A stretch of 34,867 nucleotides of DNA from Candidatus Omnitrophota bacterium (GCA_026387555.1 JAPLLM010000003.1:1935-36801); one strand, 5' to 3'. Counted from the stretch's first letter, positions 1-30,071 are shown. The notes: generated by a model from the letters alone, not told the origin. A program made the numbers and translations.

Positions 1-3000
1 AATTTTCCATCCTTCAGCAGTAAGCCCCTCTACATTCAAACCCTGGCCGATGTATAAACTTACGCTTTGCGGGGTGCCTGCCTTTATTTTGTCATAGAAC
101 TGCCCGGATGCATTCTTGCGGATATACTGCGCCAGAAATTCTCCCCATGCACCTTCATTCTTACAAACTCTTAATCCTTCCCAGAATCCTTGCAAACCTT
201 TCTGTGATAGGGTCGTCACCACCATCCCCAACCCGATTGCTAATGTAAACACAGGCTCAAATCCCGGCAGTATCAAGAAGGCATGCGTGGAAGTAGAATT
301 GGGCTGTGCGGGAGCGGGTTGTACTTGAGTTGCTTTTTCGGCGGCTAGCCTGTCAGCGAACTGCTTGGCGCCATAAAAATCCCCATTCGCGCAACAGCAA
401 TATGCGGTATACGGGAGAATATTTAACTCGTTTTTGCTTACTTTGCCGGCAAATGCTTGGCGGATGGTAGTCGCAGCTACTTCAAAAGGCATCCCGATGA
501 TAAAATTGGCATCCAGGGTGGTCTCTATAGTCTCTCCCACTACTTCCCGTTCAAAGAATATCGCGGAAACCTTATGCAATACGTCACTGTAAGGAACTAT
601 CTTCTTTTCTTTGACCTCTACGCCCGTCTTTGGATCAAGATGGGAAACCTCATAAGAAATCTCTATGGAAACATTATCTTCTAATTTCTGGATAGTATCT
701 AGCTTAGGCGCTTCTCCTGCCTTTTTGACCACCTGGCCCTCATACTCCACCTGTCTGGCTACCCATGCCTCATATTCAGGCCTACCCCTTTCCATTGAGT
801 TTGGCGGCTGCAACTCATCAGGGAGAAATAAATCCGCTCCGTCTCTATCTTTAACTTTCAGGCGGGCCCAACGGTTGTAGTGGTCTCTTCCCACCATGTA
901 AAAGGCTTCGATCTTCTGGTGGCTATTCATATTCAAGATACGAAAGATATTTGTTTCACCATCCAACGGGGTACCTGAAGCAATGGGGCAATAAGCAAAG
1001 AGCGGGTCGAACATTTTCAATACCTTTTGAGCCATGATGTGGCGTGGATGATCTGCAAGCAAAGAACTGGCTTTTCTCGGGTCGCTGCCGGCGATGACAT
1101 AAATAATCTTATCCAGCTTGTATTCGGCAATAGCAGCCAGCCCGGCGATCAGATGCATCCAGGTAAAAGGATTAGCGGCAACAGGATAGACGCCTATTCT
1201 GAATGGCCTGGGGTTTATATCGCATACCTCGCCGCGGTGAAGAGCGGGCTTAATGTTTGGATTGATCAAGCCTAATTTTAAATGATCGGCTATCTGGGCC
1301 AAATAGCGTTCGCTAAAACTCTTGATGATTGCGAAATGGCCCTCATTATCTTTCATCCCTAACTCCAGGGCCATATTTTTCAATTCGTTCTCAATCTTCC
1401 GGCTGATGATATTCGTAATCGGATTGGATTGACTGGTGGAGAAAGTCGGCAGGGGCATGGGCCTGCCGGGATGGCCAAAACGCACCTTGCCTGCTAACTG
1501 CCTGGAGATTGCATTAAAACTTTCCTCCATCCCTCTTATTTTCTTGCTTAATACCCCGTACTCTTCGGTAAACATATACTTCAGGATCCTTCTTTTTAGG
1601 TTTACGATATTTTCTTTTTGCGGTATATGCCTAGTGCCTTCTTCTCCTCCTGCTGGCACGCGCACAAAGAAAACTTCTTTCAAACAGGTGATCTGGCCGA
1701 TAACCCTTATCAACCCTCCGGAGCCTGACCGGCTATCGATTAACCACGGAACCTTAGCCGCGATCTTATGGTTCATTTGCGCCTTAAGCCTTTCTATATC
1801 CGCTGTTGTATTCCTGGTATAGGCTTCATCCAACTGCCGGAGCTCATCCTCGGTGATCCCGAACATACCGGCTAAATCAGGAAGGTATATATGCTCATTT
1901 GCAGTATGGAAGAGCCTGAAATATTTACTAAAGGTCGCGAAATCGGTTTTTGCCAGCTTCTTGATCCCTTCACTCAAACAGGAGCGTTCTACGATCTGCT
2001 GGCGGCTCTCGTTTTTGGGCTGGCATCCTTCTTTGAGATTAACCAGGTAGCCGCCGATATCTTGAGGAGTGGTTACAGAGACTTCGCTCATTACTGTTTT
2101 ACCGGATAGATAAAACATTGCCATTAGCACCGGTTCAGGAAAAGCCACCAGATTATCTATATTGGAAGTCGCGTAGATATGTTTTTTAGTTTTAGCATGT
2201 AACAATCGATAAAGCTGACCGCTGGTGATAAGCGATTGAATAAGGCCAAAATGCCCGGCAGGAGTAAAGTCTGATTTTACTCCGCTTGCGTGTATGTGCG
2301 AAAAATCTTTCATCGAGAAACGGCGGTTCTTATCCGTCTGCAGATAAAACTCGGTTGCCGGATCCAAACCATAGTTCCCTTGACGGACGAAATCATCCCG
2401 TACTTCTCCATCAGTCGAAAAGCTGGTTAAGGTCAGAAAAGGAAAATCTATTCCGAACTTATCCCTGAAATATTGCACCACTCGGGCAGTGATTTCATTA
2501 AAGGAGCGCCCGCCGTAAACCGGGACTATTCCGGTACCCTTGGCAATATCTTCACTTCCCAATACCGCCCAGCGCGAACCAAGCCCGGCATTAGGCTTGG
2601 CGTACACATACATGGGAAATAGCGCCGCACCTAATTGGTATAACTGCATATATTCTGCAGTCAAAAGATGTTTATCGCCTGCCTGCCTAATATCCGTCTC
2701 CAGAGAATTGGCTATGACCATCAGCCTATTAACATTCTGTAGGCCGCATCTTTTGCAGATAGCATCGATCTCTTTCCGGTTTGCGATTAAATAATCGGTC
2801 AATTCTTTGAATCTTCCCGGAGAGACTTCGAAACTTACTGTTTCGCCGGCTTTTAGAGGCATTACAGGTACCTGCGGGGAAGGCCACACATCATTCAGGC
2901 TATGCACCTTTATCTGTGTTTCGGCAGAAAACGTGCCGATCCTCATCATCGCCTGAATCTTGAGCTGCTCTTCGCCGTTATCAACGGAAAATGCGGTATC

Positions 3001-6000
3001 CGGGCACTTGGATAATATAGCTCGCGCCTCTCTTATCTCCTTGTCATTGCCTTGCGCAAAAATATAACCTAACAAAGAGCGCGCGCTCCTCTTATTGAAC
3101 TCAACTACACACGCAGGAGCCTCTCGGCTAACGTTATCGAGCAGCTTTCTTGCCAGTAATAAATGTGTTTTTGAACTAAAGGCCTGCAGATGGGTGGGGT
3201 ATTTTTTGGTTTCCGGATTAGTCTGCGCTTTTCGGATATAGGTGGTTATTTCTTTTAAAATCCCACCGTCGGATTCCAGCGAAACGCGGCATTTCCTAAG
3301 AAGGTCGACTAATCTGAAAACCTTTTCTCCTATGCCAAAATATTCTCCAGCCGGAATCCTTTCTTCTTCTTCGAATAAATCAAGCTTGTGTTGCCTTGCT
3401 ATTGCCACATGCTGATACTGATGCCTAAGGCAATCTGCGATAATCGCAAACAATAACTCCCTGGCATCGCTAGGCAGCAACCTGTAAAGGTCAGCTAACA
3501 TCATTAAATCATCTAAATCCAAATAGCCCTGTAAACGCTTACGGCTTACTATGTGCAGATACATATCTCCGGGGAATCTGCCCGGCCTCAAACCGGAACA
3601 GACCACAATATCAAAGTCTCTCTCCTGTTCTATGGCCTTATTCTTTAAACGGTCAATAATAGAGGGTAACCAGGATTTCTTAGCAGGAGGAACAAAGGTC
3701 AATTCTTTCCCCAAATCCATCAGCTTGGTATAAAATTCCGACTTAAACTGGCCGGGGCTATTCTTTGCCACATACTGCTCAAATGGAAACATCGCCCGGT
3801 ATCCTTGTTCAGTAAGGATTTTGCGTCGGCCAAAGAGAGAATAGAGGCTTTCGTCATTGCTGGCCTTAGTCAAGCTGTTCCTAATGTCATCGCAAAAGAT
3901 TATATAATCCGCTGCGGAGATAGGTAAAAGAGGGGTAAGGTTAGGGCCGGTCTCCTTTTCCAGGGAACTCTTGAACTCGTCTTCTACTGTGATCCCGATT
4001 TCAGAATTATCCAAATATATGCGTGGATAGATAATGCTGAAGGCTGCCTTTAGCAATTCGGGGCGGGAACGCACATATTCCACTATCACCTGCCGCCGGT
4101 CTTCATCGCTCGGTTCATGGGCCGTAGCGTCTTGCTGCGCGCGGCGCAAGAACATAAGATGCAGAAACCCTTCAAAGACCACTATCTGCACGATTTCTTT
4201 GACAAATGCCGGTTCAAGATTAGTAATGCCGGAGCTAAAAACCAGCTTTTCTTCATTAACCATTGCTAACTTGTGAAGCTCATCGCTAAACTCGATTTCT
4301 ACTTCGCTGCCCAGGATAAAATTACTGAAATAACCCTGGAAGTTTCCCTTTAAATCCCTTACACCCTGCTCAAATGATCTTCTCAATACGGGATTAAACG
4401 GAAAATCATCCGGGAAAACCACCTTTATATCAGCGGCCTTGCCTGCTTCTATTTTTACCTTGTAAGCTTGGGCATCGAGCTTATTTTCATTCTTTAATCT
4501 GGTCAATGAGAACTCGGAATATTTAACAAGGGCTAAGCCTACTGCCAGCGGCAGGAGCATCAGCTCAAGGCCGGGTATAAACAGTGCAGCGAATGTAGAA
4601 GATTCCGCGCAGCCTACCTGCTGTTTAGCCCATATAAATTCTTCCGCTTTTATGGCGTCGGAAGAATCCACGGGCCGGGCCTCGATAAGAGTTTCCCTGA
4701 TTTTCGAGTCCCCTTCCACCAGAAGGCGGATCATCGCTGCCCTGAGGCCTGCTTTGTCCGCAACTCTTTCTCCATAAAATTCGTCGAACTTTTCAAATGT
4801 CGTGGCAAAAGACTGATATGGAATACGACGTAATGCCATGAGTCTTTCGGCATTATTACCGTTCTCCCATACATCGCAAAAGATTAATATATCCAGCATC
4901 AATCTAATTTCTTTTGCGGTTATGCCGGATGTCTTGGCTACGTGCTCAAACTCCGTGGGATCTTCAGGATAACAAAAATGGTTTGTAATCAGAAACTCTT
5001 CCGCTACAGCAAGTTTAATCCCGAAACGCTCGCGCAAAACCCGCACTCCGTTATATTCATGGCTATAGTGAGCATAATACCTTTCTATTTGATCAAGAGT
5101 AAGATGGTTGCCATCCTGCGCACAGATAGCAGCTAGCACCCTGGCCATGCTCATGTACCAAAGAGATTCATCAGTAAGAACCTGTGCGGCTAAATCCGGC
5201 CTCTTCTTAAGAAATACCTCTAATGCAACAAGCGACGCCTTCTTAGAGCCATTAGCCGGAAGACCATAATTCCTGGCAAGTTCCCTTTCTGCTTTAAAAG
5301 ACCCTCCCTCTGTCAGAGGTATATGTATACCGCCTATGTCATGCACTTTGGCTACACGAGTAACCATATCTATCAGCTCTTCTTTGAGTCTCATCTCTCT
5401 TCCTAACAAAGATACGTATTCTGAGACCCTACGGTTATGCGCCTTATTCAGGCCTTCAGGAAAAATCCTATCTAATTCGTCCATCTCAACTTCCCTTAAA
5501 GCCCTGCAGACAGTAGATGAAACTATCCCCACTGCCAGCATAATGGCTGAACTTATTGGATCAAACATCTGCCCTACAAGTAAGGCAGTCGTAAAGTCAA
5601 AAGCATGGGCAACCGGAGAGTGTGTTTTCCTAAAGTTGATGGTGTTGGAATAATGGAACCAATGCTCAATATTTTCTTCACCTAAAAGATATCTTTCAAA
5701 ATCCTGCTCATTAACATCAGCGTGTATAAAGATCCCGGTTACGGGTACTGGCTGCCTGGCTATCTTTATCTGTTCTACTTTTTCATCTAATAATCTTCTT
5801 AGGCGCGGATTGGACATGACAGCCCGGAAGATATTCTCCGTATTACAGCTGCCGTCCTTATCCTTATAGGGCGTTAAGGCGCTTAACCTGCCGCAGATAA
5901 GCGTTTCCTCTTGCGTAAGAGAAGAAAGCTTACCCTGGAGCCTTTGGATAACCTCGCGTGTAAGCGCCTTTCCGCTCATGCCGTCTTTTAATTCCATTAC

Positions 6001-19419: not shown

Positions 19420-19979
19420 CTAACTGAAACTCCTCCTTGTCGTCCAACGTTCCAGTTATGGACATTGCCAGTTTCACTTAGGATTTGGCCCAACCGAGTA
19501 CCGATTACATTTAAGGTCTCTGTTTTTGCAGCATAAAAACCACTTAAAGGCGGATCACGTTGCCTTTCCTGTTGTTCCATACCCAATACAACCAGCTTAT
19601 TATTACCTTCTATTTGCTGCTGCAGAAGCGGTATATCATCAGGCGTAAGCCAGCAAGCCGCATCTGCCGGTAACCAAACGAACCAATGACCACTTGGTAG
19701 AACTCGAGAGAAAATCTCTGCTTGACGAGTAGTAATTTCTGTTAAACGTTTACCCAATACAACAATATCTCCTTTGGTTTCAGACGCTAATCCAAGGAGC
19801 CCCTGACGTAAAGCCCTACCCCCGGTACTTGAACAAAGCAAAATATGATGATCTTGAGAAACTATATTAGCCTGAGCGAAATGATCTTTTACTTCTCTAA
19901 GAGTAACTATACTTTCTTTGCGGTCTTCTACTGCTGCCATCACAGAATTAACAGCCTTATCGCCAGGCCCTGGTGAAAT
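18960..19979 (-). other. NTP-transferase (sugar-1-P nucleotidyltransferase / fucokinase-N-like) module plus beta-helix, split across the ORF B / ORF C boundary
   Basis: ORF B C-terminus: HILLCSSTGGRALRQ (cf. GG.G.RL), HWFVWLPADAACWLTPDDIP, KLVVLGMEQ...PLSGFYAAKTETL. ORF C N-terminus: VTHFNSPKDIYDFYRNLL (19269-19322; cf. f.H.GT..EYL / W.D.G....Y), then IHHSIIRVPEGVELVLGDDVIIDNTILDIVAEPGSIVSIPDGNLISNSRIYG (about 18985-19145, left-handed beta-helix-like). Confidence 0.4.
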
Positions 19980-22900
19980 CATCGCATATTTCCAATGCTT
20001 TTGTAGATTTTCTGTTGTAAATGTTTTCTCAAACTTAGTTCGATAATATTGTGCCAATTCCAGAGAGAATTCTTCAATTGTCAATAAGGTAAAAAGGTAA
20101 AATGGACTGTTATGTGCATTTAATAATCTTTGAGATGCCAAGTTAATATCTTCTGTCATATCTGAAAAATCAACTAAAATCCAGCATCCCGCAGATGTCA
20201 TCATTGTATCAATCAGGATATTATCCGTATCCCAGTTAAAATACCCATGTTGCCAAATTTGCTCCTGTACTCCAAATGCCTCGTCTATCAGAATCCTTCC
20301 CAGAGCCGTGTTGCCGTGCGCCACAGCCAACCGCAAAGCGCCCTCTAGGGAAATTACGCCGTATTGCTGACTAAAAGCTGGTCCGCAATATAACTTTGCC
20401 CCCCTAACTCCGCGGAATCCTGGATAAAAATGTACATCTCCTATAAGACCTTTTAATTTCTGAGCCATGGTTACAACTTCCTGCATACTAAGCGCTGGTC
20501 GGGATAGAATACGAGTAACTATATTTTCAAACGCGGTCCGGAGCGTTTTTCTTTGTTGAATCATCTTTAATATCCGGAATATCATATTGATAGAAATAAC
20601 TTTTCTTACCAAGCTCTCAATAACCTTCTTAAATAAAGAGCTGCGTATCTGAACATTGGTGTGAATAGGCGTATTTACATTTTTATTCTGAACAGTGTTA
20701 AGGTAATGACGCTTAGGAATTTTAACCACCCTACTGGGATCTCTCCAATCTAGATAGGAACCCATGTTTTTACCGTCGCGGATAAATACAAGAGGAGATG
20801 TTCCTTGCTTAATTAAATTTTGCTGTTGGCGGAATTGCCACAGAAAATTTCGTTGACGAACCAATCCCCAAACCATTCGCAAGGCCTCCCCGCAACGACT
20901 GCCTTCTCTTTGACTAATCTTAAAAATCACTGGCGCCTCTATCAATCTAGCACCAATAACATCCGCCCGACCGAGTAGATTTGTATCAAATGAGGTCCAG
21001 TAATCAAAAGCATTATCCCAAATTCCATCTATAGTAACCGGGAGGATTTTGTCAAGAATGTCACGCGAAAACGCCTTAAAAGGACACTGGGTATCTGTTA
21101 ATGCTGAAAGCCTGGGCAAACAACTACGCACAATCCAATTATAGCTATATGAACCAATATTCCGCTTTAGCCCCCGTTGTAATATCGAACCTGGGGCAAA
21201 CTTTGAAGCAACCCCAACATTATTTGATGATTCCATGGTAGGACGTAAAATAATACCCTCTAATGCCAAATCTATGGCTGGCCGAATATGACCATAAATC
21301 ACGTAGTCTGCGCCACCCTTGATAGCATGGGCCATCCCATATGTGGCACCCGGCCCAAACCTGCCTCCTAGGCGATTGCAAGTCTCCCATGGTATTTCCA
21401 AGAATTTCAACTGCCCTTTGACTGCGTACGATAAACATTCCTGCTTAATTTTATCCTGCCATAATTCTGCAGGGGTATTTCTATAACTTTCTTCATGGAC
21501 AACAATCAATTCCCATTTTACATTCGGATTAAATCCATAAAGATCCTCCAGTTGTTCAAGACGCGTTCTGAGATATTCACTGCGCGCGTGATCCTCGGGG
21601 CGAGAAAGGACCATAACTGTGCTGATTTTGGTTAACACTGCTATACGACTAACCTGACGGTATGATTCAAACAATAGTTTGGCTTCCGGTTGCTGAGAAA
21701 ATACTGTTCCTAGCATACTCAAAATGGCAACGCCGCTTTCTTTTAATGATAAAGCTAACGCCATACGTAATAAAATAAACCTTTCCCTTACGGCAAGGTT
21801 ATTACTTCTGTCTGTGCTCAAAACCGCCCGACAGAAATCAAGCAATTTATCTGATTGTTTTGTTTTAACAATCTGCTGAAGAAGGCGTTCTTGGTACTCA
21901 AAACTGTCTTTAGCAATAACCCTAACCTTATTCTCTTCACATATTTCAACAGTGGCTATTTGGAGTAGCAGCACTTGTGAACGCGTTGCCGCTTTCCATT
22001 CATCAAGCAACTTACGCTGCCGCCAAATTCGGATGAAAAACTTGAGTGATAGCCAAGGGCTGACCACAGATAATCGCGGAGAATGATGCATACAGCTGGG
22101 CACTTCCCCAACGCGATAACCGCGCACTTTAGCTCGAGAAATCCATAAGTCGCTAGATGTGTAAAAATAATCGAAACCTTTTTCAAAATCGCCCTGAGCA
22201 GATACAGGAAGAATGGTATCAATCATTTCAGGCTTTACGCCTTTAAGCGCATTATGGGTATCCAGGATATGTCCGACAGGCAGGACGGTACGGATAAAAC
22301 GGTTCAGCACTATGCTGTACCAATAATACAGCCTGCCCATATGTAATACGCGTCCCTTTACACGGTTAGAACCAATGACAAGGTCTAGAGAACCTTCCAT
22401 AAGTGGTTTTATAATATTCCCCTCCAAGCCGACATGAGTATCTAAGTCAACGTTGGTGTAAATAACAATACCTGCGCCCAACTGCACAGCTTTGCGCATA
22501 CCGTATAAAACTCCAGACCCCTGGCAACCCTGAATTTGTTCTTTTAAGCTTTGATCGACTTCAAAAACGCATATCCGGCCAGATTTTAGTTCCGCTGTGA
22601 ATTCTTTCCGCAAAATCCCGAGCATTAAATCTGTAGTTTTAAAACTATTTAATGATGATGTGTATTTGCGGTCATCGCCATCTTGTACATAAATTAGTTG
22701 CCAATCTAAAAGCGGATTAACGCTAAAAAGTTCCTGCAACTGAAGAATCTTATTACGCATGGCATCTTCAGCTCCCTCAAACTCAGATTTCTTTTGAATC
22801 GACAGTTGATGTCCATAAACCGATATAACCGTAGCGACTTTAACCGGAGTGCGTATACGATAAAAACTAAGATAAGAATTAACCATGAGCTTAGCCTCAG

Positions 22901-25900
22901 CTATCATCTGAGGCTCCATACGGCAATCCTTAATAAGTCGTTCTAAGAAATCAGCTACAGTAGCAGCGTCTTTCCGTTTCAGAACGGCTGAACAGACTGT
23001 GGCGATTAATTGCAATCTTTCATTAGCAGGTAGAATAACGTTGATACTTTTATCGCGGTATAGAGGTAGCCCCAGAATGTCTCTCAACAAGACAAATACA
23101 TCTTCTTGCTTGGCGTCCTGAAAGATATTTCGCAATTTTTCTTGGCGTAGTAATTCATCTCGGATAGTCAATATTGTTACCAGCGGACTAGTTAAGGGTA
23201 CTGAAGACCTGACGCATGTTATGCCAACTGCAACTAATACCAATACACTGGAAATAAAGTAGGGGTCAACAAAGGGTAATATCGATAAAACATTGTTGCT
23301 ACTTCTATTCTCTGTATTCGCTCGTACCGCCGCGCCGACAGCTTTCTGAAATTTAAGAAGAACACCATTAATTGACAATTTTAACTTTTCAGTTGAACCG
23401 TTATTGTCGATTACTTGATTCGACATGCTCAAAAATTTTCGCTCAGAAGGAAATCCGGGGTTCTTGGCAAATCTCTTCTCTGCTAACTGTTTAGTCATGC
23501 CAAATTTACTAAATCTTGCTAACACGGTTTCCTTGCGTGCCGTTTCATTTCTACGTATATACCAAACCTCATCCCACAACGAGCTCAAGCCAAGTATATG
23601 GTTAAAAGCACAATCGACAATAATTAATCGGTTCCCCTGAACAAGTGCGCCTCGAATCTCCTCTAATACAATCTTTGCTATCGCAGGAATAAATATGCGT
23701 CTGAACTTTCTGTCTATGCGCATCACCAATATTTGCTTACCACCGATACCGCTTACTACTTCAGAGCACTGCTTAAAGGCAGAGCGCATTATTTCACGAT
23801 ATCTTGGGTTTTTGGGGAATTCGTGTTCGGTGTCAATTACGCGATAATTTAACGAAACCAGATAACTTGCTACTGTGGACTTTCCGCTTGCCGGATATCC
23901 CATCAATGCGATAATTTTTGCGCCTTTTTTATTTTTTAAAGCCAATAATTCTTTCATTTCACTAGACTGGGAATTACTGGTTACAAATGTCTTTATCCAT
24001 AATGCCACCGCGCCAACAGCTATACCTACAATCATTACTGCAGTCATAAGAAAATCGCCCAACACCATTCCCATCACCGCATTGCCTGACTTACCGTCAT
24101 TCTTCACCACGGTCGCCGCCGCGCCGGTATTCTTAAGCATAAATGGCTGCTCTCCCAACGCAATACCAAGCTCCCTATCTTCCTTAAGTTTCTCTAAGAT
24201 TGTGTTTACGATTTGTTCATGAATCAAGCACTTTATCCCGCAAGTTTTACAGATTTCCGGATCGTGCTTAATTTCTTTGCTTCTTTCTAATACTGCTTCT
24301 ACCGAGGCTTGCGAAAAATCTCCGACCTCAAAGTCTCCACGCCATGCATTCAAGGGATGCTCAAGGTAATCGCATAAAAATCCTACCCCAAAAGGATTGA
24401 CCACCATTTTGGACATCCGGATTTGGCAGGTCTTTGCCCTCGGCATACCGGTCAGGAATTTCTCATCGCCTCTTAAATCGTTCTCGGTCATTCCTCTCAA
24501 ATCTAAGCCCATCTTCATTTGTTTATTATAATTATATTTACCGCTCCGGGCATTCTCCTGCATAATAACAATCTGTCGCAAAATCTCTGCAATCTCCACT
24601 GGATTAAATGACCTGACAATCGCGCCCATATCAACTCTCACGGCAAGAAAATCGACGCCTAAATTATATGCCCAATCCGCGGCTTTCAGGATATCCCGAT
24701 AATTAGATGGTTCGGGGATCACTAAGTAAGTCAGACCGATTTCGACTTTAAAACCCGTTTCCCTCTTCCTCGTTACCAGTTCTCTGATATTGTTTTCTAC
24801 CCTCTTAAAGTTAAATTCTGGTTTAATTGGCCGGTGGACACTGCGGAACATTTCTTCGCCAATTGCAGATATACTAAATCTTACCCATCCGCTTTCTAAA
24901 GCAACTTCACGTGCCCGGCCAGCCAGAAGCTGACCGTTGGTGTATAATTTAGTACGCAGGCCCAGCCTGTTTGCTTCATCTAATATATGCCAGGCAATAT
25001 CTGTAGTAAGCGGCTCCAATCCCCCGGAAACCCAAATTTGTTCTGTCCCGCCCTTAGCAAATTCCCTGACCAGCTCTCTGGCTTTTTCGGCGGTCAAAGG
25101 TTTTCTGCCATTCCTGCTATCTTGATAACGGAAAGGACAATCTTTGTTGTGGTTGGTATAACAATATACGCATTTATAGGGACACCATGTGCCCGGATGA
25201 AACTCTGCAAGAAGTGGATAGACAACGGTTTTCTCATCAAAAATCCCCTCTAAACTCTTGCAGTGCTGCAACTGGAATTCGATCTCCCCTGCCACGCCGG
25301 CAAATTCGCTGTTATTGATCAACATCTGATGCAGCCCAGACACAGAGCGCAACATTCTATACGCCCGCAATAACTCACTGACTGAAAGATTGTTTCTTCT
25401 GCAGATCTCTTCGCTCTTGGCAACCGGAACCAATAATAAGGAACTAAGAACAGCGGCGGTATTCTTCAAATCTGGGGCTGAAATCTCATTACCTGATTTC
25501 GTAATCAGGCCTTCCAGGATCGGCGCAGCTTTTTCCGGGTCATTTTTCAGGAGTCCGGCGAGGTCACTGAGCGCCTGCGGCCCTTCAAATAAGAACTTTC
25601 TCTTGGTTGGATTAAACGGTCCTTCCGCAATAACTAGGACACGATTAGGGGAGGTATTCAGGAAGCGAAAACGATGTGCGGAAAAATTAATGGCCTTATC
25701 CCCTGCTTTCAATGAAACCGTGTACCGTTCCTTGGCGTGCTTATCCGCGAATACTGCCTCGCACTCGCCTTCTAAAAGCATGACCATATCCAACAACGGA
25801 CGCTCATCAGACCCTGCTTTATCCCAACTTAAGGAATTAACGGGTGGCTCTAAATGCAGGTACTCACCTTCACCGGATCTATCCTGCGGAGTCTTTAAGC

Positions 25901-28900
25901 CTGCGCCTAATGGGTTAGAAGGAACAAGGATGGGTTTCATCGCCTTATACTTCGGGTCATTCTGCCATAAATTGCTAGGGATAGCCGCAATTAACTCGCC
26001 GCCTTCTCTTATTACGTTAATATCATTAAGTAAGTCGAGTTTTTCTGCCAAGGTTTGCGCTTTTTTATCGATTATTCTATTTTTGCTGGCAAAAATCGTA
26101 AAGACAGCACCCACGCTTGACGCTTGCAGGGTATACGGAACGTACAAAGCCGCAATTCTTCCTTTCTCCAACGAAACCTTCTTGCCGGCAAACGTCAGCT
26201 CAACATCCCCATTTTCAATAACTATAATATTTTCAATACTATCTTCTTTCTGTTGATAGCATTCTCCTTGCCTGCTGAACGCTCTCGTTGAAATTGTGAT
26301 TGTCTGGCCGACTTCGTCGAATGATGCGACACTGCCTGACCTCATAATGATAGCAAGACGATCCCCTCTGCTATTCCGTACTTCCTCCATTATTCCCAGT
26401 GCAAAAATTCCTAACCCAGCTAAAAGTATATCTGCAGCCGGTTCGCCGGTAGAAATGAAAGGAATAACGAGGCCCATTGTCGCATTGCTTGACTTAGCTT
26501 TATTTGTTGCCCTGGCCGTCACCGCTACGCCGAACTTCTTCGCAATAACCGTAACCAGTTCCCCTCTTCCTCCAGCCTCTATTTGTTTTTTATTTTGGAT
26601 TACGCGTTGGAAATCTGCATCCGAAATCAGGCCATGTTCATGCTCTACGGCAACCCAGCGTTCATTAAATTTAGTTTCCAAATGCACTATCTCAAATCCG
26701 CTTTTCTCAAAAAGCATTCTTAATGTTTTCGGAGAGAAGTAATAGAAGTGGCCTATTTTAATATCGGAAAATTCCCTACCCTGGATTCTTCCTACTTCGC
26801 TATCCAAATTAGGCAATCTGGTTATGTACAACAGTCCACCATCCTTTAAAACCCGGCGCGACTCAGCTAATTCTGCGCTTGGGGCCAAAAGATGCTCTAA
26901 TGTTGCAAAATAACCCAATAAATCCAGCGAATTGCTTTCAAAGTTACGTTGGTGCAATGTTCCGTGAAAGGCCTTAAGGCCGTCCCGTGTTAACAATCCT
27001 ACCGCTTCCCTTGAAGTATCAATGCCTTCAACATCGAAGCCAAGTTTAGCTGCAGCTTTAAGATGATGTCCAGGGAAACCGCAACCGACATCCGCCATTT
27101 TCACTTTTTTGACATCGCCTAAATAGCGAGAAATAAATTCTATCTCCTGTGCTGCAGCGGCTTCCCTTTCAGGGCTAAGTTGATAGAAACCAGGCTCCCA
27201 TTCTATAACCCTAGGATTACGCACATAAACCAAGCCACAATTCCCGCACCTTACGATTATATCCTTTCTATCCGCCCGATAGCCATGTCCCGGAATCTTT
27301 ATTTTTCCGAGAGGAATATTCTCATCCTTTGCCAGAATTATCGGACCTACCCTAAATAATTCTATCTGCCTACCAGACCCACAAAGATTACAACATGTAA
27401 TTTCCGCTTCCGCCGAAACCTGCGGTTGCCCTACTTCTCTGAGCCCGTTAGCGATTAAATCCGGAGTTATGTTTTTGAATTCTTCGTTTTTGATTAAAAC
27501 AGTGTACCCGCTCATTTCCGGCACTCCCCAGCCATTAGTATAGAAACTATCAGGTGCCCTTTTCACGCGCGGATAGATAAATACAACAAACTCTCCGGAC
27601 GGCATTTTCTTCAATAAGATATCCAGCATATCCGGCTTAAAGCCCATCCGGATAAACTCTTCTACTTTATTTCTGGTAAGCGCCTTTACCTCTTGGCTCA
27701 CTTTGCCTCTAAGTAGTGTGTTATCCACCGGCCAGGATGGCACTCTACCTATACTCACCGCTCCCCTTTGCTCTTTAACTTCTACGGGTTGAGCTTCAAT
27801 GCTAAACCTATTCAGGCAACCTTGGAAATGGAAATGTTCTGGGATACTTCTGGCGGGACCGTTAAGGAACAGGCTTACTCCCGGAGCTTCAGCCACGAAA
27901 TCAAAAGCAACATTTAATACCTCTTCATCCCCCACAGTCTTGGTTTCTTCCCCGGTATGCCTTTTTGCCGCTAAGACAAAGCCGTGTTCCCTTGTCCAAG
28001 TAAAAGGATTTATAAGAATCCTATAATCACGCCAAGAGAATCCTCTCTGAGCCAGCGGCATAAATTGCGGGCACAGGTTACACCTCGTCCCACTCTCCCC
28101 GCCTATCTCTTTTATATCCAAAGCCAGACGCTTGATTAATAGTGGGAGGATATATATCCCATATTTTCTGGTGTATGTTAATGGGTGTAAGAGCATATCG
28201 GCGGCATTCTTTGGCTCTGCTGATAAACTTACTCCTTGTTGATAATGTTTGGGGTCGCGGTGGGCACAATAAGCCGCCTCAAACGGATCTACCTTCTTTG
28301 TCTCTATCCCCTTTATTCTGGCATCGACAAATCCCACTTTGCGCTGCTGCCAAGAAATGGCCTTGATTATATCCGTCATAGTGTATACTCTCAACCAGCG
28401 CAAGGATAATAACAGTAATCCTGCTGTAAAAGGATCAAAAGCACCAGAAATTTTATGATGCCACGCTACCTGTTCGGGTGCATATTTTAGATAGTTTTTC
28501 AGCACTAAGATTGTTGCTAATACTATAACTACTGCTAGTATCGCTGTACCAGGGAAGGAAATTAATGAATTGCAATTTACATCTGTGGATGGTTTATTTT
28601 CTGATGCAGGTTTTGTTGCGGGACTAGACTGTACATTCGGCGGCGCCTGCGACTGCTGCTGACTGGCTAACTCCCTAATTTTCTGTTGAGCGTTTTCGGG
28701 GGTAAAAGAAGAGACAAAAAGTATGGAATTAGTAAGATCCAAAGAATGGAAATAATAATTTATTGTTCGACCGGTAGTTAGAGGTTCGAATGCCGTATAA
28801 GAATCAGGACAAATTTCACTTTCGCTTTTTTCTAAACCATCTTCTTTTTCTCTGGCAAGATCTAAGCTTAAACTTATCACAATACTAGCCAATATGGGAT

Positions 28901-30071
28901 CTTCTATTGTTCTTATTATTGGAGGTACTACTCTTCTAATAAACTCGCGGTGAATATGATGTCTACTATAAATATCTCTCCAGTTGATAGATGCAGTTTT
29001 GCTGACCCATAAATTTTCGCTTGCTTCTAATATTTGGATGTGGGAGGCGAATCTGGCTAGATTTCCTCCCGCTAACTCTGATGCCAAAGGAACACCTACC
29101 TCAATGATGTCGCAAGGGGGCATGTTATTACGCGCCAATCTTATTCCCATTTCCATGGCGAGATTAAATTCTTCGGCGCTTTGAATTCCCCTTACCATGC
29201 GAGGGATGGAGTTTAAAAGAGCGTAATAAATAGGCTTATTTTCTGATTCTAGTACTGATAATAAAACCTTAGTGCTAGCGAAATTAATATCATATCTCTG
29301 TGTACTCCTTAAGGCGATTATATGCTTTGGAATTACCGAGATTAGACAAACGACATTAGGTAACCTGTATCGTAAGAACTCTACTATTGTCTTATAAATA
29401 GGTAACCCACTGCTTTTTGCATCTATAAACTTATAAATAACATAACCAACTATCATCGCTATCGCGAGAGAAACAAACCATGTGAAAACATGAATAGATG
29501 ATACCTCGATCGGTAACAAAACTGCTAAGTTGGGAGATTTAGCCGCAGGCTGCGCTGACTCAGGCTTCTTGGGTTCTTCCAGCTTGGCCGCAACAACTTC
29601 TGCTGGCTTTACAGTTACCGGAGTTTTCAGCGCTTTGCGGCGCGAGGCTTTATATCCAAACCAACCAGCACCAGTCAAAAATAGCGCCCCTATTCCTGCT
29701 AATATCCCGTACTTTAGCTTTTTGTTAATGCTTGTCTGTCCTGCTTGCGGCTGTTGGCTTGCCTTGAGGGCCACTGTTTGGGAAGCAGAAGAAGGCGCAA
29801 CCGGTGGCCCTACGGTTGGCTTGGCCGCAGGAACCTGCGCTTGCTTTTTCTCTTTTTTCTCTACTTCTTTAGGCAACCTTACATTAGCCATTCCTGCATC
29901 GGCTTCCATAGCACCCAACTCATTGTGCATAGAAGCTAGGTCATTTACCGCATCAGCGAGTTTTCTCGTAGAAGTTTCAAACTCATAATTAAGAGTGCCT
30001 ATTTTCTGATGGGTAAATTCTTCGACTTGAACACGCGCTGCTGCACGGTCCCTACCCACATAGATAGACAA
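19401..30071 (-). CDS. Giant ORF B (3,556 aa): membrane-tethered multi-enzyme protein (HIT-type nucleotidyltransferase, methyltransferase, radical SAM, kinase, 2x GT2 and others)
   Basis: Track ORF. TTG start at 30069-30071. An in-phase TGA at 30078-30080 excludes a longer N-terminus. Stop TAG at 19401-19403 (mRNA ...GCA GGG ATT CTT CGT TAG). It overlaps the end of ORF A by 20 nt. My residue count (3,556) agrees with the track, so aa-to-nt conversions below use codon high coordinate = 30071-3(i-1). Confidence 0.9.
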   Translation of the reverse strand: MSIYVGRDRAAARVQVEEFTHQKIGTLNYEFETSTRKLADAVNDLASMHNELGAMEADAGMANVRLPKEVEKKEKKQAQVPAAKPTVGPPVAPSSASQTVALKASQQPQAGQTSINKKLKYGILAGIGALFLTGAGWFGYKASRRKALKTPVTVKPAEVVAAKLEEPKKPESAQPAAKSPNLAVLLPIEVSSIHVFTWFVSLAIAMIVGYVIYKFIDAKSSGLPIYKTIVEFLRYRLPNVVCLISVIPKHIIALRSTQRYDINFASTKVLLSVLESENKPIYYALLNSIPRMVRGIQSAEEFNLAMEMGIRLARNNMPPCDIIEVGVPLASELAGGNLARFASHIQILEASENLWVSKTASINWRDIYSRHHIHREFIRRVVPPIIRTIEDPILASIVISLSLDLAREKEDGLEKSESEICPDSYTAFEPLTTGRTINYYFHSLDLTNSILFVSSFTPENAQQKIRELASQQQSQAPPNVQSSPATKPASENKPSTDVNCNSLISFPGTAILAVVIVLATILVLKNYLKYAPEQVAWHHKISGAFDPFTAGLLLLSLRWLRVYTMTDIIKAISWQQRKVGFVDARIKGIETKKVDPFEAAYCAHRDPKHYQQGVSLSAEPKNAADMLLHPLTYTRKYGIYILPLLIKRLALDIKEIGGESGTRCNLCPQFMPLAQRGFSWRDYRILINPFTWTREHGFVLAAKRHTGEETKTVGDEEVLNVAFDFVAEAPGVSLFLNGPARSIPEHFHFQGCLNRFSIEAQPVEVKEQRGAVSIGRVPSWPVDNTLLRGKVSQEVKALTRNKVEEFIRMGFKPDMLDILLKKMPSGEFVVFIYPRVKRAPDSFYTNGWGVPEMSGYTVLIKNEEFKNITPDLIANGLREVGQPQVSAEAEITCCNLCGSGRQIELFRVGPIILAKDENIPLGKIKIPGHGYRADRKDIIVRCGNCGLVYVRNPRVIEWEPGFYQLSPEREAAAAQEIEFISRYLGDVKKVKMADVGCGFPGHHLKAAAKLGFDVEGIDTSREAVGLLTRDGLKAFHGTLHQRNFESNSLDLLGYFATLEHLLAPSAELAESRRVLKDGGLLYITRLPNLDSEVGRIQGREFSDIKIGHFYYFSPKTLRMLFEKSGFEIVHLETKFNERWVAVEHEHGLISDADFQRVIQNKKQIEAGGRGELVTVIAKKFGVAVTARATNKAKSSNATMGLVIPFISTGEPAADILLAGLGIFALGIMEEVRNSRGDRLAIIMRSGSVASFDEVGQTITISTRAFSRQGECYQQKEDSIENIIVIENGDVELTFAGKKVSLEKGRIAALYVPYTLQASSVGAVFTIFASKNRIIDKKAQTLAEKLDLLNDINVIREGGELIAAIPSNLWQNDPKYKAMKPILVPSNPLGAGLKTPQDRSGEGEYLHLEPPVNSLSWDKAGSDERPLLDMVMLLEGECEAVFADKHAKERYTVSLKAGDKAINFSAHRFRFLNTSPNRVLVIAEGPFNPTKRKFLFEGPQALSDLAGLLKNDPEKAAPILEGLITKSGNEISAPDLKNTAAVLSSLLLVPVAKSEEICRRNNLSVSELLRAYRMLRSVSGLHQMLINNSEFAGVAGEIEFQLQHCKSLEGIFDEKTVVYPLLAEFHPGTWCPYKCVYCYTNHNKDCPFRYQDSRNGRKPLTAEKARELVREFAKGGTEQIWVSGGLEPLTTDIAWHILDEANRLGLRTKLYTNGQLLAGRAREVALESGWVRFSISAIGEEMFRSVHRPIKPEFNFKRVENNIRELVTRKRETGFKVEIGLTYLVIPEPSNYRDILKAADWAYNLGVDFLAVRVDMGAIVRSFNPVEIAEILRQIVIMQENARSGKYNYNKQMKMGLDLRGMTENDLRGDEKFLTGMPRAKTCQIRMSKMVVNPFGVGFLCDYLEHPLNAWRGDFEVGDFSQASVEAVLERSKEIKHDPEICKTCGIKCLIHEQIVNTILEKLKEDRELGIALGEQPFMLKNTGAAATVVKNDGKSGNAVMGMVLGDFLMTAVMIVGIAVGAVALWIKTFVTSNSQSSEMKELLALKNKKGAKIIALMGYPASGKSTVASYLVSLNYRVIDTEHEFPKNPRYREIMRSAFKQCSEVVSGIGGKQILVMRIDRKFRRIFIPAIAKIVLEEIRGALVQGNRLIIVDCAFNHILGLSSLWDEVWYIRRNETARKETVLARFSKFGMTKQLAEKRFAKNPGFPSERKFLSMSNQVIDNNGSTEKLKLSINGVLLKFQKAVGAAVRANTENRSSNNVLSILPFVDPYFISSVLVLVAVGITCVRSSVPLTSPLVTILTIRDELLRQEKLRNIFQDAKQEDVFVLLRDILGLPLYRDKSINVILPANERLQLIATVCSAVLKRKDAATVADFLERLIKDCRMEPQMIAEAKLMVNSYLSFYRIRTPVKVATVISVYGHQLSIQKKSEFEGAEDAMRNKILQLQELFSVNPLLDWQLIYVQDGDDRKYTSSLNSFKTTDLMLGILRKEFTAELKSGRICVFEVDQSLKEQIQGCQGSGVLYGMRKAVQLGAGIVIYTNVDLDTHVGLEGNIIKPLMEGSLDLVIGSNRVKGRVLHMGRLYYWYSIVLNRFIRTVLPVGHILDTHNALKGVKPEMIDTILPVSAQGDFEKGFDYFYTSSDLWISRAKVRGYRVGEVPSCMHHSPRLSVVSPWLSLKFFIRIWRQRKLLDEWKAATRSQVLLLQIATVEICEENKVRVIAKDSFEYQERLLQQIVKTKQSDKLLDFCRAVLSTDRSNNLAVRERFILLRMALALSLKESGVAILSMLGTVFSQQPEAKLLFESYRQVSRIAVLTKISTVMVLSRPEDHARSEYLRTRLEQLEDLYGFNPNVKWELIVVHEESYRNTPAELWQDKIKQECLSYAVKGQLKFLEIPWETCNRLGGRFGPGATYGMAHAIKGGADYVIYGHIRPAIDLALEGIILRPTMESSNNVGVASKFAPGSILQRGLKRNIGSYSYNWIVRSCLPRLSALTDTQCPFKAFSRDILDKILPVTIDGIWDNAFDYWTSFDTNLLGRADVIGARLIEAPVIFKISQREGSRCGEALRMVWGLVRQRNFLWQFRQQQNLIKQGTSPLVFIRDGKNMGSYLDWRDPSRVVKIPKRHYLNTVQNKNVNTPIHTNVQIRSSLFKKVIESLVRKVISINMIFRILKMIQQRKTLRTAFENIVTRILSRPALSMQEVVTMAQKLKGLIGDVHFYPGFRGVRGAKLYCGPAFSQQYGVISLEGALRLAVAHGNTALGRILIDEAFGVQEQIWQHGYFNWDTDNILIDTMMTSAGCWILVDFSDMTEDINLASQRLLNAHNSPFYLFTLLTIEEFSLELAQYYRTKFEKTFTTENLQKHWKYAMISPGPGDKAVNSVMAAVEDRKESIVTLREVKDHFAQANIVSQDHHILLCSSTGGRALRQGLLGLASETKGDIVVLGKRLTEITTRQAEIFSRVLPSGHWFVWLPADAACWLTPDDIPLLQQQIEGNNKLVVLGMEQQERQRDPPLSGFYAAKTETLNVIGTRLGQILSETGNVHNWNVGRQGGVSVSAGILR
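19430..19438 (-). promoter_or_regulatory. Strong internal Shine-Dalgarno-like AAGGAGGAG just upstream of the B stop / C frame opening
   Basis: The + strand ctcctcctt at 19430-19438 gives mRNA CAAGGAGGAGTTTCAGTTAGTGCAGGGATTCTTCGTTAGAAAAGTGG. No ATG/GTG/TTG in the ORF C phase follows within 150 nt, so its role (start site, frameshift stimulator, or chance Gly-Gly codons) is unresolved. Confidence 0.3.
20037..20804 (-). other. Protein-kinase-like / small-molecule kinase-like fold (tentative)
   Basis: aa ~3090-3345: SPLVFIRDGKNMGSYLDWRDPSRVVKIPKR near the start. WQHGYFNWDTDNILID...GCWILVDFSDM resembles the H.D....NIL ... iDF catalytic/activation segments of APH/choline/Kdo kinases, but the spacing is not canonical. 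Confidence 0.25.
20832..21638 (-). other. GT2 glycosyltransferase module 2 (dolichyl/polyprenyl-phosphate hexose synthase-like)
   Basis: aa ~2812-3080: ISTVMVLSR..., LIVVHEESYRNTP, GPGATYGMAHAIKGGADYVIYGHIRPAIDL (DxD position degenerate), LTDTQCPFKAFSRDIL (DTQCPFKAF = 21069-21095, canonical), FDYWTSFDTNLLGRADVIGARLIEAPV. Confidence 0.65.
22017..22850 (-). other. GT2 glycosyltransferase module 1 (dolichyl/polyprenyl-phosphate hexose synthase-like)
   Basis: aa ~2408-2685: VATVISVYG..., LIYVQDGDDRKYT, GSGVLYGMRKAVQLGAGIVIYTNVDLDT (DxD present), ILDTHNALKGV (22239-22262, degenerate form of DTQCGFK), FDYFYTSSDLWISRAKVRGYRVGEVP. Confidence 0.6.
23211..23342 (-). repeat. Junction element copy 5 (ORF B aa 2244-2287), full form
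   Basis: AVGAAVRANTENRSSNNVLSILPFVDPYFISSVLVLVAVGITCV. Confidence 0.7.
23352..23939 (-). other. P-loop NTPase kinase module (dephospho-CoA kinase / nucleoside-kinase-like)
   Basis: Walker A IIALMGYPASGKSTVASYL (GYPASGKST verified at 23874-23900). Walker-B-like LIIVDCAF. Lid-like RRNETARKETVLAR. Confidence 0.6.
23982..24131 (-). repeat. Junction element copy 4 (ORF B aa 1981-2030), full form
   Basis: NTGAAATVVKNDGKSGNAVMGMVLGDFLMTAVMIVGIAVGAVALWIKTFV. The 15-nt string cccatcaccgcattg (24070-24084) is identical to 16031-16045. Confidence 0.7.
24177..25238 (-). other. Radical SAM module (CX3CX2C) with C-terminal Cys-rich tail
   Basis: HPGTWCPYKCVYCYTNH. The three Cys codons were verified on the DNA at 25182-25184, 25170-25172 and 25161-25163. 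GGE-type SAM motif IWVSGGLEPL. Distal cysteines: C1882, C1900 and CKTCGIKC (aa 1941-1948). Confidence 0.75.
25572..26366 (-). other. Two cupin-like beta-barrel segments (tentative bicupin; sugar isomerase/epimerase-like?)
   Basis: aa ~1236-1500: IVIENGDVELTFAGKKVSLEKGRIAALYVPYTLQASSVGAVFTIF and MVMLLEGECEAVFADKHAKERYTVSLKAGDKAINFSAHRFRFLNTSPNRVLVI. Both follow the cupin G-x-hydrophobic...l.aGD...ip pattern. No metal-ligand motif recognised. Confidence 0.3.
26382..26531 (-). repeat. Junction element copy 3 (ORF B aa 1181-1230), full form
   Basis: GVAVTARATNKAKSSNATMGLVIPFISTGEPAADILLAGLGIFALGIMEE. Confidence 0.7.
26667..27149 (-). other. Class I SAM-dependent methyltransferase module
   Basis: Motif I KMADVGCGFPGHH (VGCGFPG = 27069-27089). 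An acidic residue ends beta-2 (FDVEGIDTS). Motif III-like region RVLKDGGLLYI. Confidence 0.65.
27234..27401 (-). other. Four-Cys zinc-ribbon-like segment preceding the methyltransferase
   Basis: aa 891-946: ITCCNLCGSG ...(about 40 aa)... RCGNCGLVY. Two CxxC pairs. Confidence 0.4.
27492..28106 (-). other. HIT-superfamily nucleotidyltransferase/phosphorylase module, GalT / GDP-hexose-phosphorylase branch (HxHxQ)
   Basis: aa ~656-860: TRCNLCPQF (CxxC), then FSWRDYRILINPFTWTREHGFVLAAKRH...GVSLFLNGPARSIPEHFHFQG. HFHFQ verified on the DNA at 27822-27836. This pattern (N.P...H..l, then N..gA..S..H.H.Q) is the GalT/Apa2/GDP-L-galactose-phosphorylase signature as I recall it. Confidence 0.5.
28491..28589 (-). 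repeat. Junction element copy 2 (ORF B aa 495-527)
   Basis: STDVNCNSLISFPGTAILAVVIVLATILVLKNY. Confidence 0.45.
29430..29540 (-). repeat. Junction element copy 1 (ORF B aa 178-214)
   Basis: KSPNLAVLLPIEVSSIHVFTWFVSLAIAMIVGYVIY. Fits N-x-x-[VM]-L-[LI]-P-x-[DE] plus hydrophobic helix. Confidence 0.45.

Follow-up and report, generated by a model that had tools for sequence, protein, structure and literature searches.

A recurrent hydrophobic cassette at enzyme-module boundaries of a giant Omnitrophota gene, a candidate membrane-tethering separator

A giant minus-strand gene encodes a series of enzyme modules

We analysed a DNA stretch of 34,867 nucleotides from a Candidatus Omnitrophota bacterium (GCA_026387555.1, JAPLLM010000003.1:1935-36801), hereafter called the window, and within it a hydrophobic cassette that recurs at the junctions between the enzyme modules of a giant protein. 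All long reading frames lie on the minus strand. They form a single giant gene that takes up the window and consists of three abutting open reading frames (ORFs), which together encode at least 11,635 amino acids (aa) and run past both window ends. The split consists of one stop/start overlap (ORFs A/B) and one apparent frameshift (ORFs B/C); ORFs A and C share a common frame, and ORF B is shifted. ORF A (30055..34866, minus strand; 1604 aa) makes up the upstream portion of the giant gene and remains open where the window ends on the right. It encodes a multi-pass membrane domain and an unannotated soluble region of ~560 aa, and had no match in Pfam, NCBIfam or the PDB sequences. A HMMER search and an exact look-up showed that ORF B (19401..30071, minus strand; 3556 aa) is identical to MCX5710362.1, a "DUF4922 domain-containing protein" encoded on a 41,122-bp contig of a Candidatus Omnitrophota metagenome-assembled genome (MAG). 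ORF C (1..19419, minus strand; at least 6473 aa) continues beyond the left end of the window. Residue numbers below are preceded by the letter of the ORF.

The ORF A stop overlaps a possible ORF B start as GTGGGTAG (window 30052-30077, minus strand), the start candidates being a GTG at 30059 and the TTG at 30071 that was called by NCBI. This overlap indicates that the giant gene consists here of at least two translationally coupled ORFs. Relatives such as P0022, in contrast, carry the membrane domain and the enzyme modules in a single ORF. ORF B ends at a TAG codon (19401-19403), and ORF C opens 16 nt upstream of it in the -1 frame (window 19340-19480). The first 50 codons of ORF C past the ORF B stop contain no ATG, GTG or TTG, the first TTG being codon 51 and the first ATG codon 363. 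Because there is no ORF C start codon at this position, the boundary has the appearance of a -1 frameshift in what is otherwise one continuous gene. No slippery heptamer is present within the 16-nt overlap; the candidate explanations are an indel introduced during assembly, a frameshift that turns the gene into a pseudogene, and an unconventional start.

The modules of ORF B are DUF4922, an S-adenosylmethionine (SAM) methyltransferase, a cupin-like module, a radical-SAM module, a P-loop kinase resembling dephospho-CoA kinase and two GT2-like modules. ORF C encodes a radical SAM/SPASM module, two UDPGP modules resembling UDP-glucose pyrophosphorylase, an HD-like module, an NMNAT-like nucleotidyltransferase and many unannotated modules. 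The cupin-like, HD-like and both GT2-like modules were assigned from homology blocks only. Of the two radical-SAM domains in the giant gene, one is DesII/viperin-like and the other carries SPASM; their CxxxCxxC motifs are intact, and so is the run of catalytic motifs of the methyltransferase, radical-SAM, kinase and GT2-like modules. The two GT2-like modules lie in tandem at window 20870-22840 (B2414-3067); both are ~29% identical to residues 5895-6177 of the related giant protein P0021, and Pfam gave no detection for them at E <= 0.01.

Fifteen junction elements share a common architecture

Fifteen junction elements were identified along the giant protein. The initial annotation of the window, made from the sequence alone, had described at least 13 copies; the recurrence stands, the count is corrected to 15, and one element, in ORF A (34681-34860), lies beyond the range originally given. 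The eleven peptides quoted there are all present in the minus-strand translation, and the two nucleotide identities are exact (12509-12525 with 13802-13818, and 16031-16045 with 24070-24084). The cassette comprises an optional, basic or polar lead-in with the consensus G-A-A-V-x-A-R-x-T-N-E-x-[KR]-[SP]-S-N, a first arm of ~10 hydrophobic residues rich in Pro and Gly, a break formed by an acidic residue, usually followed by Pro, at the start of a helix, and a second arm consisting of a hydrophobic helix of 13-26 residues with the small-residue motif L-A-[VL]-G-[LIM]. Two subtypes can be distinguished: a full type with lead-in, found from A3 to C1154, and a short type without lead-in, found from C1314 to C6401. 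The motif T-N..N plus A-V-M-G-M proposed initially describes only some of the copies: in the alignment the lead-in is present in seven of the 15 elements and "AVMGM" in two. Nor is the Asn invariant, as had been proposed, since it occurs in only eight of the 15.

All elements are encoded on the minus strand. The most upstream one, A3-62 (34681..34860), has a lead-in with ..KAKTNSADLAN.., followed by ISTGK and the helix ILAGIALLALGIAL. In ORF B, element B179-216 (29430..29543) reads AKSPN / LAVLLPI / E / long helix, and B498-527 (28497..28586), which comes after a 'TPENAxxKIxEL..SSP' module end common to relatives, reads DVNCN / SLISFPG / helix and lacks the acidic residue. The full copy B1183-1231 (26385..26531; GVAVTARATNKAKSSN / ATMGLVIPFISTG / EP / AADILLAGLGIFALGIM) sits between the methyltransferase and the cupin plus radical-SAM modules. 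The full copy B1985-2028 (23994..24125; GAAATVVKNDGKSGN / AVMGMVLG / DF / helix) separates the radical-SAM module from the kinase, and a third full copy, B2248-2289 (23211..23336; GAAVRANTENRSSNN / VLSILPFV / DP / helix), separates the kinase from the GT2-like modules. The first element of ORF C, C656-690 (17350..17454), is decayed: the lead-in GGAFTARITNEPDN and the first arm ALFVSAAATPAA with DEP are retained, and polar sequence has taken the place of the second hydrophobic arm. It is followed by the full copy C832-879 (16783..16926; GAAVATRTTNEARPN / TTFALCLTG / EL / 23-aa helix), by C1117-1154 (15958..16071; ..DDAKPNN / AVMGMAVFGVP / DV / helix) and by the weakly hydrophobic C1314-1349 (15373..15480; GGVAAVNN / AAALSSLSVFTG / EP / VADALVAGTCVLGR). 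The remaining elements are of the short type: C1849-1874 (13798..13875; LCAAPILFSA / DP / LLGLGCLALGMVAL), C2273-2304 (12508..12603; ..AVAAVSP / EL / AAGVALVALGMVA), C4609-4635 (5515..5595; FTTALLVGQMF / DP / ISSAIMLAVGIVSS), which directly precedes the HD-like module, C4941-4965 (4525..4599; STFAALFIPGL / EL / MLLPLAVGLALV) and C6373-6401 (217..303; PNSTSTH / AFLILPGF / EP / VFTLAIGLGMVV).

Several lines of evidence demonstrate that these elements constitute a real sequence family, beyond generic hydrophobic stretches. When residues were shuffled within each element, A[VLI]G was expected in 2.4 elements and is found in 10 of the 15, [DE]P was expected in 0.7 and is found in six, and the ordered combination of features was expected in 0.33 and is found in nine. 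The similarity exceeds what chance would give. An Asn at most 3 aa upstream of the hydrophobic start is present in eight of 15 elements (13% expected, P = 2e-4); such P-values are optimistic because the patterns were chosen after inspection of the data, though the effects are large nonetheless. When four lead-in copies were used as ungapped BLOSUM62 seeds, their best non-self matches in the 11.6 thousand aa (kaa) were other copies, with scores at about the 95th percentile of shuffle maxima. In addition, five core copies were each retrieved as the first non-training match by leave-one-out hidden Markov models (HMMs).

The relationship extends in part to the DNA. Two junction pairs are among the top three direct-repeat families returned by an unbiased repeat search of the window (D1, 32 nt, 78% identity; D3, 53 nt, 75% identity). 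Codon agreement at identical residues exceeds expectation both in the lead-in (57 against 36.5) and in the helix motif (55 against 37.2), and GGC-GCG-GCG-G is common to three lead-ins even though just 22% of Ala codons are GCG. In the helix, A[VLI]G is nevertheless encoded by varied codons, which suggests selection on a small-residue packing face. Likewise, copies that lack DNA identity keep the order of features, a sign that selection acts on the protein.

The elements coincide with module boundaries

In agreement with the initial proposal that the copies sit exactly where one module ends and the next begins, elements were found at most 7 aa from the ends of homology blocks. For blocks shared with the related proteins P0002, P0017, P0021 and P0124, a block edge lies within 7 residues of an element in nine of ten cases. 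Thus, block B1229-1489 is preceded by an element that ends at 1231, and block B1455-1980 is followed by one that starts at 1985. Elements delimit three blocks on both sides: B2027-2240 (ending at 2028 and starting at 2248), C4638-4934 (4635 and 4941) and C4970-6374 (4965 and 6373). The element preceding block C6403-6473 ends at 6401. Moreover, stand-alone radical-SAM homologues terminate 0-8 residues past a conserved 'QPF' that corresponds to the start of the B1985 lead-in. Since block edges coincide with elements, the latter are genuine separators of modules. Some module boundaries of the giant protein, however, lack the cassette: the ~2,300-aa region C2305-4608 (window 5600-12500) contains several modules, including UDPGP, with no hydrophobic cassette and no obvious recurrent linker motif between them.

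Most elements are too weakly hydrophobic for a standard transmembrane helix

In a Kyte-Doolittle scan of ORFs B and C (~10,000 aa), the strongly hydrophobic segments were the junction elements and B123-143 only, C1314-1349 falling below the threshold for strong hydrophobicity. Kyte-Doolittle values in 19-residue windows exceed 1.6 in 13 of the 15 elements. Summation of Hessa free energies (dG), a crude and position-independent measure, gave a 19-mer with dG <= 0 in only five elements, and placed nine at +3 to +9 kcal/mol; the latter lack the length or the hydrophobicity to insert as a 19-residue transmembrane (TM) helix. These nine are unfavourable because their second arm has only 13-19 residues, so that a 19-mer has to take in the Pro and the acidic residue. 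The flanks are net basic on both sides of the elements, without alternation, and the 15 residues downstream contain one to four Lys or Arg interspersed with acidic residues.

Three consecutive junctions divide the SAM methyltransferase, the cupin plus radical-SAM modules, the P-loop kinase and the GT2-like modules, which need SAM, a reductant or nucleoside triphosphates (NTPs). Because soluble GASSP motifs take the place of these junctions in a relative (see below), the modules on both sides are judged to be of cytoplasmic type. Were each element to span the membrane, the two radical-SAM modules would probably end up in the periplasm. The view of the initial annotation that a membrane crossing at every junction is implausible is therefore borne out by the cytoplasmic-type enzymes on both sides, the flanking charges, the weak dG values and the soluble junctions of the relative.

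Two copies were modelled with AlphaFold2, using an alignment of 14 paralogous copies. For C1103-1170 the model consists of a 9-residue helix (24-32), a break and a helix at 35-61 (predicted local distance difference test (pLDDT) score 71, low confidence); for B1172-1245 it consists of coil followed by a helix at 42-72 (pLDDT 63, low confidence). In both models the long helix begins at the E-P or P-D. The helix-break-helix hairpin proposed initially was thus reproduced, at low confidence, for one copy and not for the other. A re-entrant or monotopic anchor is plausible, since it would fit the cytoplasmic-type enzymes, the flanking charges, the weak dG values and the soluble junctions of the relative.

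Relatives carry other motifs at the same junctions

Other giant proteins, 1.5-7.8 kaa long, also contain modules of the window, in shuffled order. In a genome scan for the NMNAT-like module, the giant-ORF versions came from MAGs of Omnitrophota and from others that bear the label "Planctomycetales"; in Elusimicrobia the module is an ordinary gene. The closest relative, P0002 (MDD5194553.1; Omnitrophota, contig L001), has a block of 1,400 aa in common with the window, in which the modules follow one another in the same order. At the equivalent junctions it has the soluble, Ser-rich motif G-A-S-S-P, the counterpart of C4941-4965 being 'KSSP' and that of C6373-6401 'GASSP'; SSP occurs 25 times in its 6706 aa, at most module boundaries. 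Other lineages have other junction motifs, SSSS or SSSP in P0063 and PVEA.AVPG in P0021. At the SSP sites of L001 (Omnitrophota STA_84, JAQTOI010000013.1) the Ser codon pair is AGC-TCN in 11 of 16 cases, often making GAGCTC, which suggests a nucleotide-level component. To our knowledge, the GASSP/SSSS junction motifs of related giant proteins have not been described.

The cassette itself was not enriched in 160 kaa of related giant proteins when a cassette HMM and a regular expression were compared with reversed sequences: the top HMM scores in relatives equal those of the reversed control, and the regular expression matched seven times forward against once reversed in the window, and eight times in either direction in the relatives. 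Isolated look-alikes exist in L004 ("SN-LMMGLVFLPF"), L005 ("ALIPGVELVFVLF"), P0021 ("CMIDPLGAIVAF") and P0004 ("LPELLVGLGGLGL"), with further individual ones in L002 and P0017. Absence from homologues, which the initial annotation had named as evidence against the element, is thus seen in part. A metagenome scan with a radical-SAM alignment gave, among the matches listed, distant stand-alone radical-SAM genes only and no closer relative bearing the cassette. Together, the lack of enrichment in relatives and the presence of other motifs at the same sites indicate that the cassette is lineage-specific and that the position of the junction is the conserved feature.

Two further observations concern these relatives. 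A module-end helix, 'F[IV]SS[LF]TPENAxxKIxEL..QQ..SSP', is common to the window (28590-28680; B466-495) and to the SSP-type proteins P0002 and P0017; its copy in the window leads into a hydrophobic junction, so that both junction styles meet there. Deep inside the 6706-aa ORF of P0002, at residues ~4815-4850, an internal stretch (..ASSKLFRFLLMASLLITGCAGKE..) that precedes a HELLH-containing module resembles, by eye, a lipoprotein signal peptide with lipobox, a hint that some modules of such giants may be processed by signal peptidase II.

A possible role in membrane tethering

Our favoured interpretation, to which we assign a probability of roughly 45%, is that the cassette separates modules and tethers them to the membrane, so that those dependent on SAM or NTPs stay on its cytoplasmic side. 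Each module, once completed, would be fastened to the inner membrane from the cytoplasm, either by a monotopic or re-entrant anchor or by packing of the cassette helix, via the AxG face, on other membrane helices, for instance in the multi-pass domain of ORF A. Under either mode of anchoring the flanking module would not be translocated, and nucleotide-sugar, SAM-dependent and glycosyltransferase modules could be held at the membrane as one assembly line. We infer membrane association, same-side topology and the assembly-line function from the features described above.

Several observations weigh against membrane tethering. An acidic residue within a membrane-embedded hairpin is energetically awkward, the AlphaFold2 models are of low confidence and discordant on the first arm, and the caveats on the dG sums apply. 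The five elements that are hydrophobic enough for ordinary TM helices imply that the family may not be topologically uniform. The conserved polar lead-in of 22 residues exceeds what a simple anchor needs, which hints at recognition by another factor. Finally, relatives function without a hydrophobic junction, and tethering is therefore not essential to the modules.

That excess conservation of the lead-in would also fit a polyprotein processing site, the main alternative though a rather unlikely one, in which a protease recognises the cassette, or the GASSP motif of relatives, and cuts the giant protein into module-sized enzymes. After a cut near S-S-N, at the hydrophobic boundary, each downstream module would begin with an anchor helix, with basic residues behind it. 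The positive-inside rule would keep such an N-terminally anchored enzyme in the cytoplasm. Such processing would account for the presence, at almost every module boundary, of a short conserved linear motif that differs by lineage, S-S-N plus a hydrophobic arm in the window corresponding to the motifs of P0002/L001, P0063 and P0021 given above, and for the basic residues that follow most second arms. In P0124, too, an acidic residue and a hydrophobic helix come before a homologous module, a weak indication that the second arm could be the module's own N-terminal anchor. West-Roberts et al. (2023, bioRxiv 10.1101/2023.11.21.568195) treat the cleavage of Omnitrophota giants as open and the cleavage points as unknown. 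However, no peptidase family was detected in ORFs A-C, the HExxH mini-modules described below lack Pfam support, the lead-in is restricted to seven of 15 junctions, the boundaries within C2305-4608 have no cassette, and there is no invariant residue at the putative scissile bond. The broader idea that the giant Omnitrophota ORFs are true bacterial polyproteins, with lineage-own junction motifs read by a co-evolving processing system, we consider unlikely. If it were correct, cleavage would free N-terminally membrane-anchored cytoplasmic enzymes that assemble around the ORF A multi-pass domain, and the cassette would supply the very cleavage points that are reported as unknown. Autoproteolysis by Asn cyclisation, suggested initially, finds no support: the Asn is present in only eight elements, and no NPTH (FlhB/YscU) or HN motif, no match to an intein or Hint family and no other known autoproteolytic motif was found around it.

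It is distinctly improbable that the elements are ordinary single-pass TM helices by which the chain threads back and forth, with modules alternating between cytoplasm and periplasm. The Kyte-Doolittle values and the five elements with dG <= 0 would fit such a topology, and predictors of the DeepTMHMM type routinely call such segments TM in published Omnitrophota giants. It would imply, however, that some modules are non-functional or have unexpected extracytoplasmic roles, both radical-SAM modules probably being extracellular though their CxxxCxxC motifs are intact. The non-alternating flanking charges, the second arms of only 13-19 residues with Pro and an acidic residue in nine of 15 elements, and the joining of the same modules by soluble motifs in P0002 also argue against it, and West-Roberts et al. 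(bioRxiv 10.1101/2023.11.21.568195) themselves note that some predicted localisations seem highly unlikely. Another explanation is that the cassette is a recombination scar or shuffling joint, copied along with modules or serving as a homology patch, and otherwise a tolerated hydrophobic linker. The shuffled order of modules among giant proteins, the excess codon identity between copies, the junction copies among the top DNA repeats, the GGC-GCG-GCG-G of three lead-ins and the AGC-TCN preference of L001 are in line with this. It is nonetheless very unlikely, as A[VLI]G is kept with varied codons, the order of features is kept in copies without DNA identity, and functionless exposed hydrophobic linkers would be costly.

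An internal sorting signal of the exosortase, archaeosortase, rhombosortase or prepilin-peptidase type is hardly credible. There is a superficial likeness, in that x-[DE]-P is followed by an LL.GLG-type helix, one copy has P-G-F and one has an acidic residue five positions after a Gly. All elements lie inside the protein and not at its C-terminus, though, and no Arg-rich cluster follows them; the distance from small to acidic residue varies from ~5 to 11, in contrast to the fixed +5 of prepilins, and such systems act on exported proteins whereas the modules of the window are of cytoplasmic type. The PEP-CTERM-like signal suggested initially has no match to PF07589 or TIGR02595. When ten junction peptides were compared with Pfam and NCBIfam at E <= 10, no sorting signal was matched except PGF-CTERM (PF18204, archaeosortase A), by C6373-6401 only and below cut-off (11.8 bits against 18.8; E = 0.25). 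Other candidate signals were rejected. A class III signal peptide of the prepilin type, which has Gly, Ala or Ser at -1, an acidic residue at exactly +5 and then a hydrophobic helix, fits only B2000 (MG/MVLGD), the distance being ~6-11 elsewhere; the N-glycosylation sequon N-x-[ST] fits only three of the eight Asn sites; neither a lipobox nor a Tat motif was found in the window; and an internal translation start at the Met of AVMGM is at odds with the presence of Met at that position in only three copies.

Comparison with known systems

Membrane tethering has a known counterpart in the PglC-type monotopic phosphoglycosyl transferases, in which a re-entrant helix anchors a cytoplasmic enzyme in one leaflet without crossing the membrane. 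The proposed layout of the cassette is similar, with a short and a longer helix on either side of a break that contains Pro, preceded by a basic lead-in. It has no sequence relationship to PglC, however, its break being [DE]-P where that of PglC is S-P. Furthermore, the arms are unequal (~10 and 13-26 residues), the element is internal and present in ~15 copies per polypeptide, and its geometry is predicted only. PEP-CTERM and PGF-CTERM signals share with the cassette a short Pro/acid motif followed by a Gly-rich hydrophobic helix, and differ from it in all the respects given above, including the cytoplasmic-type enzymes that flank it. The GASSP/SSSS motifs are alike in occupying the same positions between homologous modules, at most boundaries and in a lineage-specific manner, but unlike the cassette they are short, Ser-rich and soluble, have no hydrophobic arms and show the AGC-TCN nucleotide signature. 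Cleavage sites of viral polyproteins are likewise short conserved motifs at the boundaries of functional units in one long product; the cassette differs in having no invariant scissile dipeptide, and no cognate protease was found in ORFs A-C.

The giant gene itself resembles the published Omnitrophota 'multi-enzyme metabolic cluster' proteins, described by Nielsen & Lui (2026, bioRxiv 10.64898/2026.06.07.730766) and by West-Roberts et al. (cited above). It comes from the same phylum, encodes a polypeptide of >10 kaa, has the same tiling of radical-SAM, methyltransferase, sugar-nucleotide and glycosyltransferase modules, contains hydrophobic segments every few hundred residues and invites the same reading, metabolic content on the cytoplasmic face, that the former authors propose for 'TM-only' giants, where the densest reported case has ~1 TM per 370 aa. 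With an Omnitrophota genome, at least 10 kaa, multi-enzyme content and TM or hydrophobic segments along its length, the protein has the features of a class 1 Omnitrophota giant. TM-rich giant proteins of Omnitrophota are thus known already. The published accounts, however, treat the segments as generic predicted TM helices and, in the passages available, describe neither a recurrent sequence cassette nor its coincidence with module boundaries, whereas the segments in the window belong to one sequence family, are mostly below the threshold for spanning and have a relative with a soluble motif at the same positions. It therefore appears to be undescribed that the hydrophobic segments of one giant form a single sequence family exactly at module boundaries; the same apparently applies to relatives with different, even soluble, motifs at the same junction positions.

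Whether Omnitrophota giants, which reach 147,000 aa, are single chains or are cut up is a recognised puzzle, and their predicted topologies often put cytoplasmic enzymes outside the cell. The cassette gives an objective way of splitting giants into modules for structure prediction, concrete sites for probing cleavage and a defined peptide for measurements of behaviour in the membrane. Relatives with soluble GASSP junctions at the same positions provide, by comparison, a natural experiment on what membrane tethering adds.

Other features of the window

Segment B123-143 (YGILAGIGALFLTGAGWFGYK; 29649..29711, minus strand) is an ordinary hydrophobic segment followed by a basic cluster, and lies outside the cassette family. 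Small HExxH/HExxE modules recur in ORF C at ~810, 1975, 2607 and 3475 (window ~16990, 13495, 11600 and 8995) and are also present in P0021, P0124, P0128 and P0003. They follow a 'hydrophobic strand' motif, resemble minimal zincins and sometimes lie near junctions. Their identification as zincin autoproteases was rejected, since they belong to no Pfam family even at E <= 1 and are not consistently adjacent to junctions; similarly, a sigma-factor-like stretch at C1600-1830 has no Pfam support.

Plus-strand ORFs of 152-288 aa lie antisense to the giant gene at 25390-26256, 7514-8014 and 29530-29988; they are most likely spurious and without bearing on the cassette. The best internal protein repeat pairs B308-351 (29060-29150) with C1202-1245 (15680-15815), with 36% identity over 44 aa (E = 0.002). 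It falls inside unannotated modules that follow two of the junction elements, which indicates that these two modules are paralogous.

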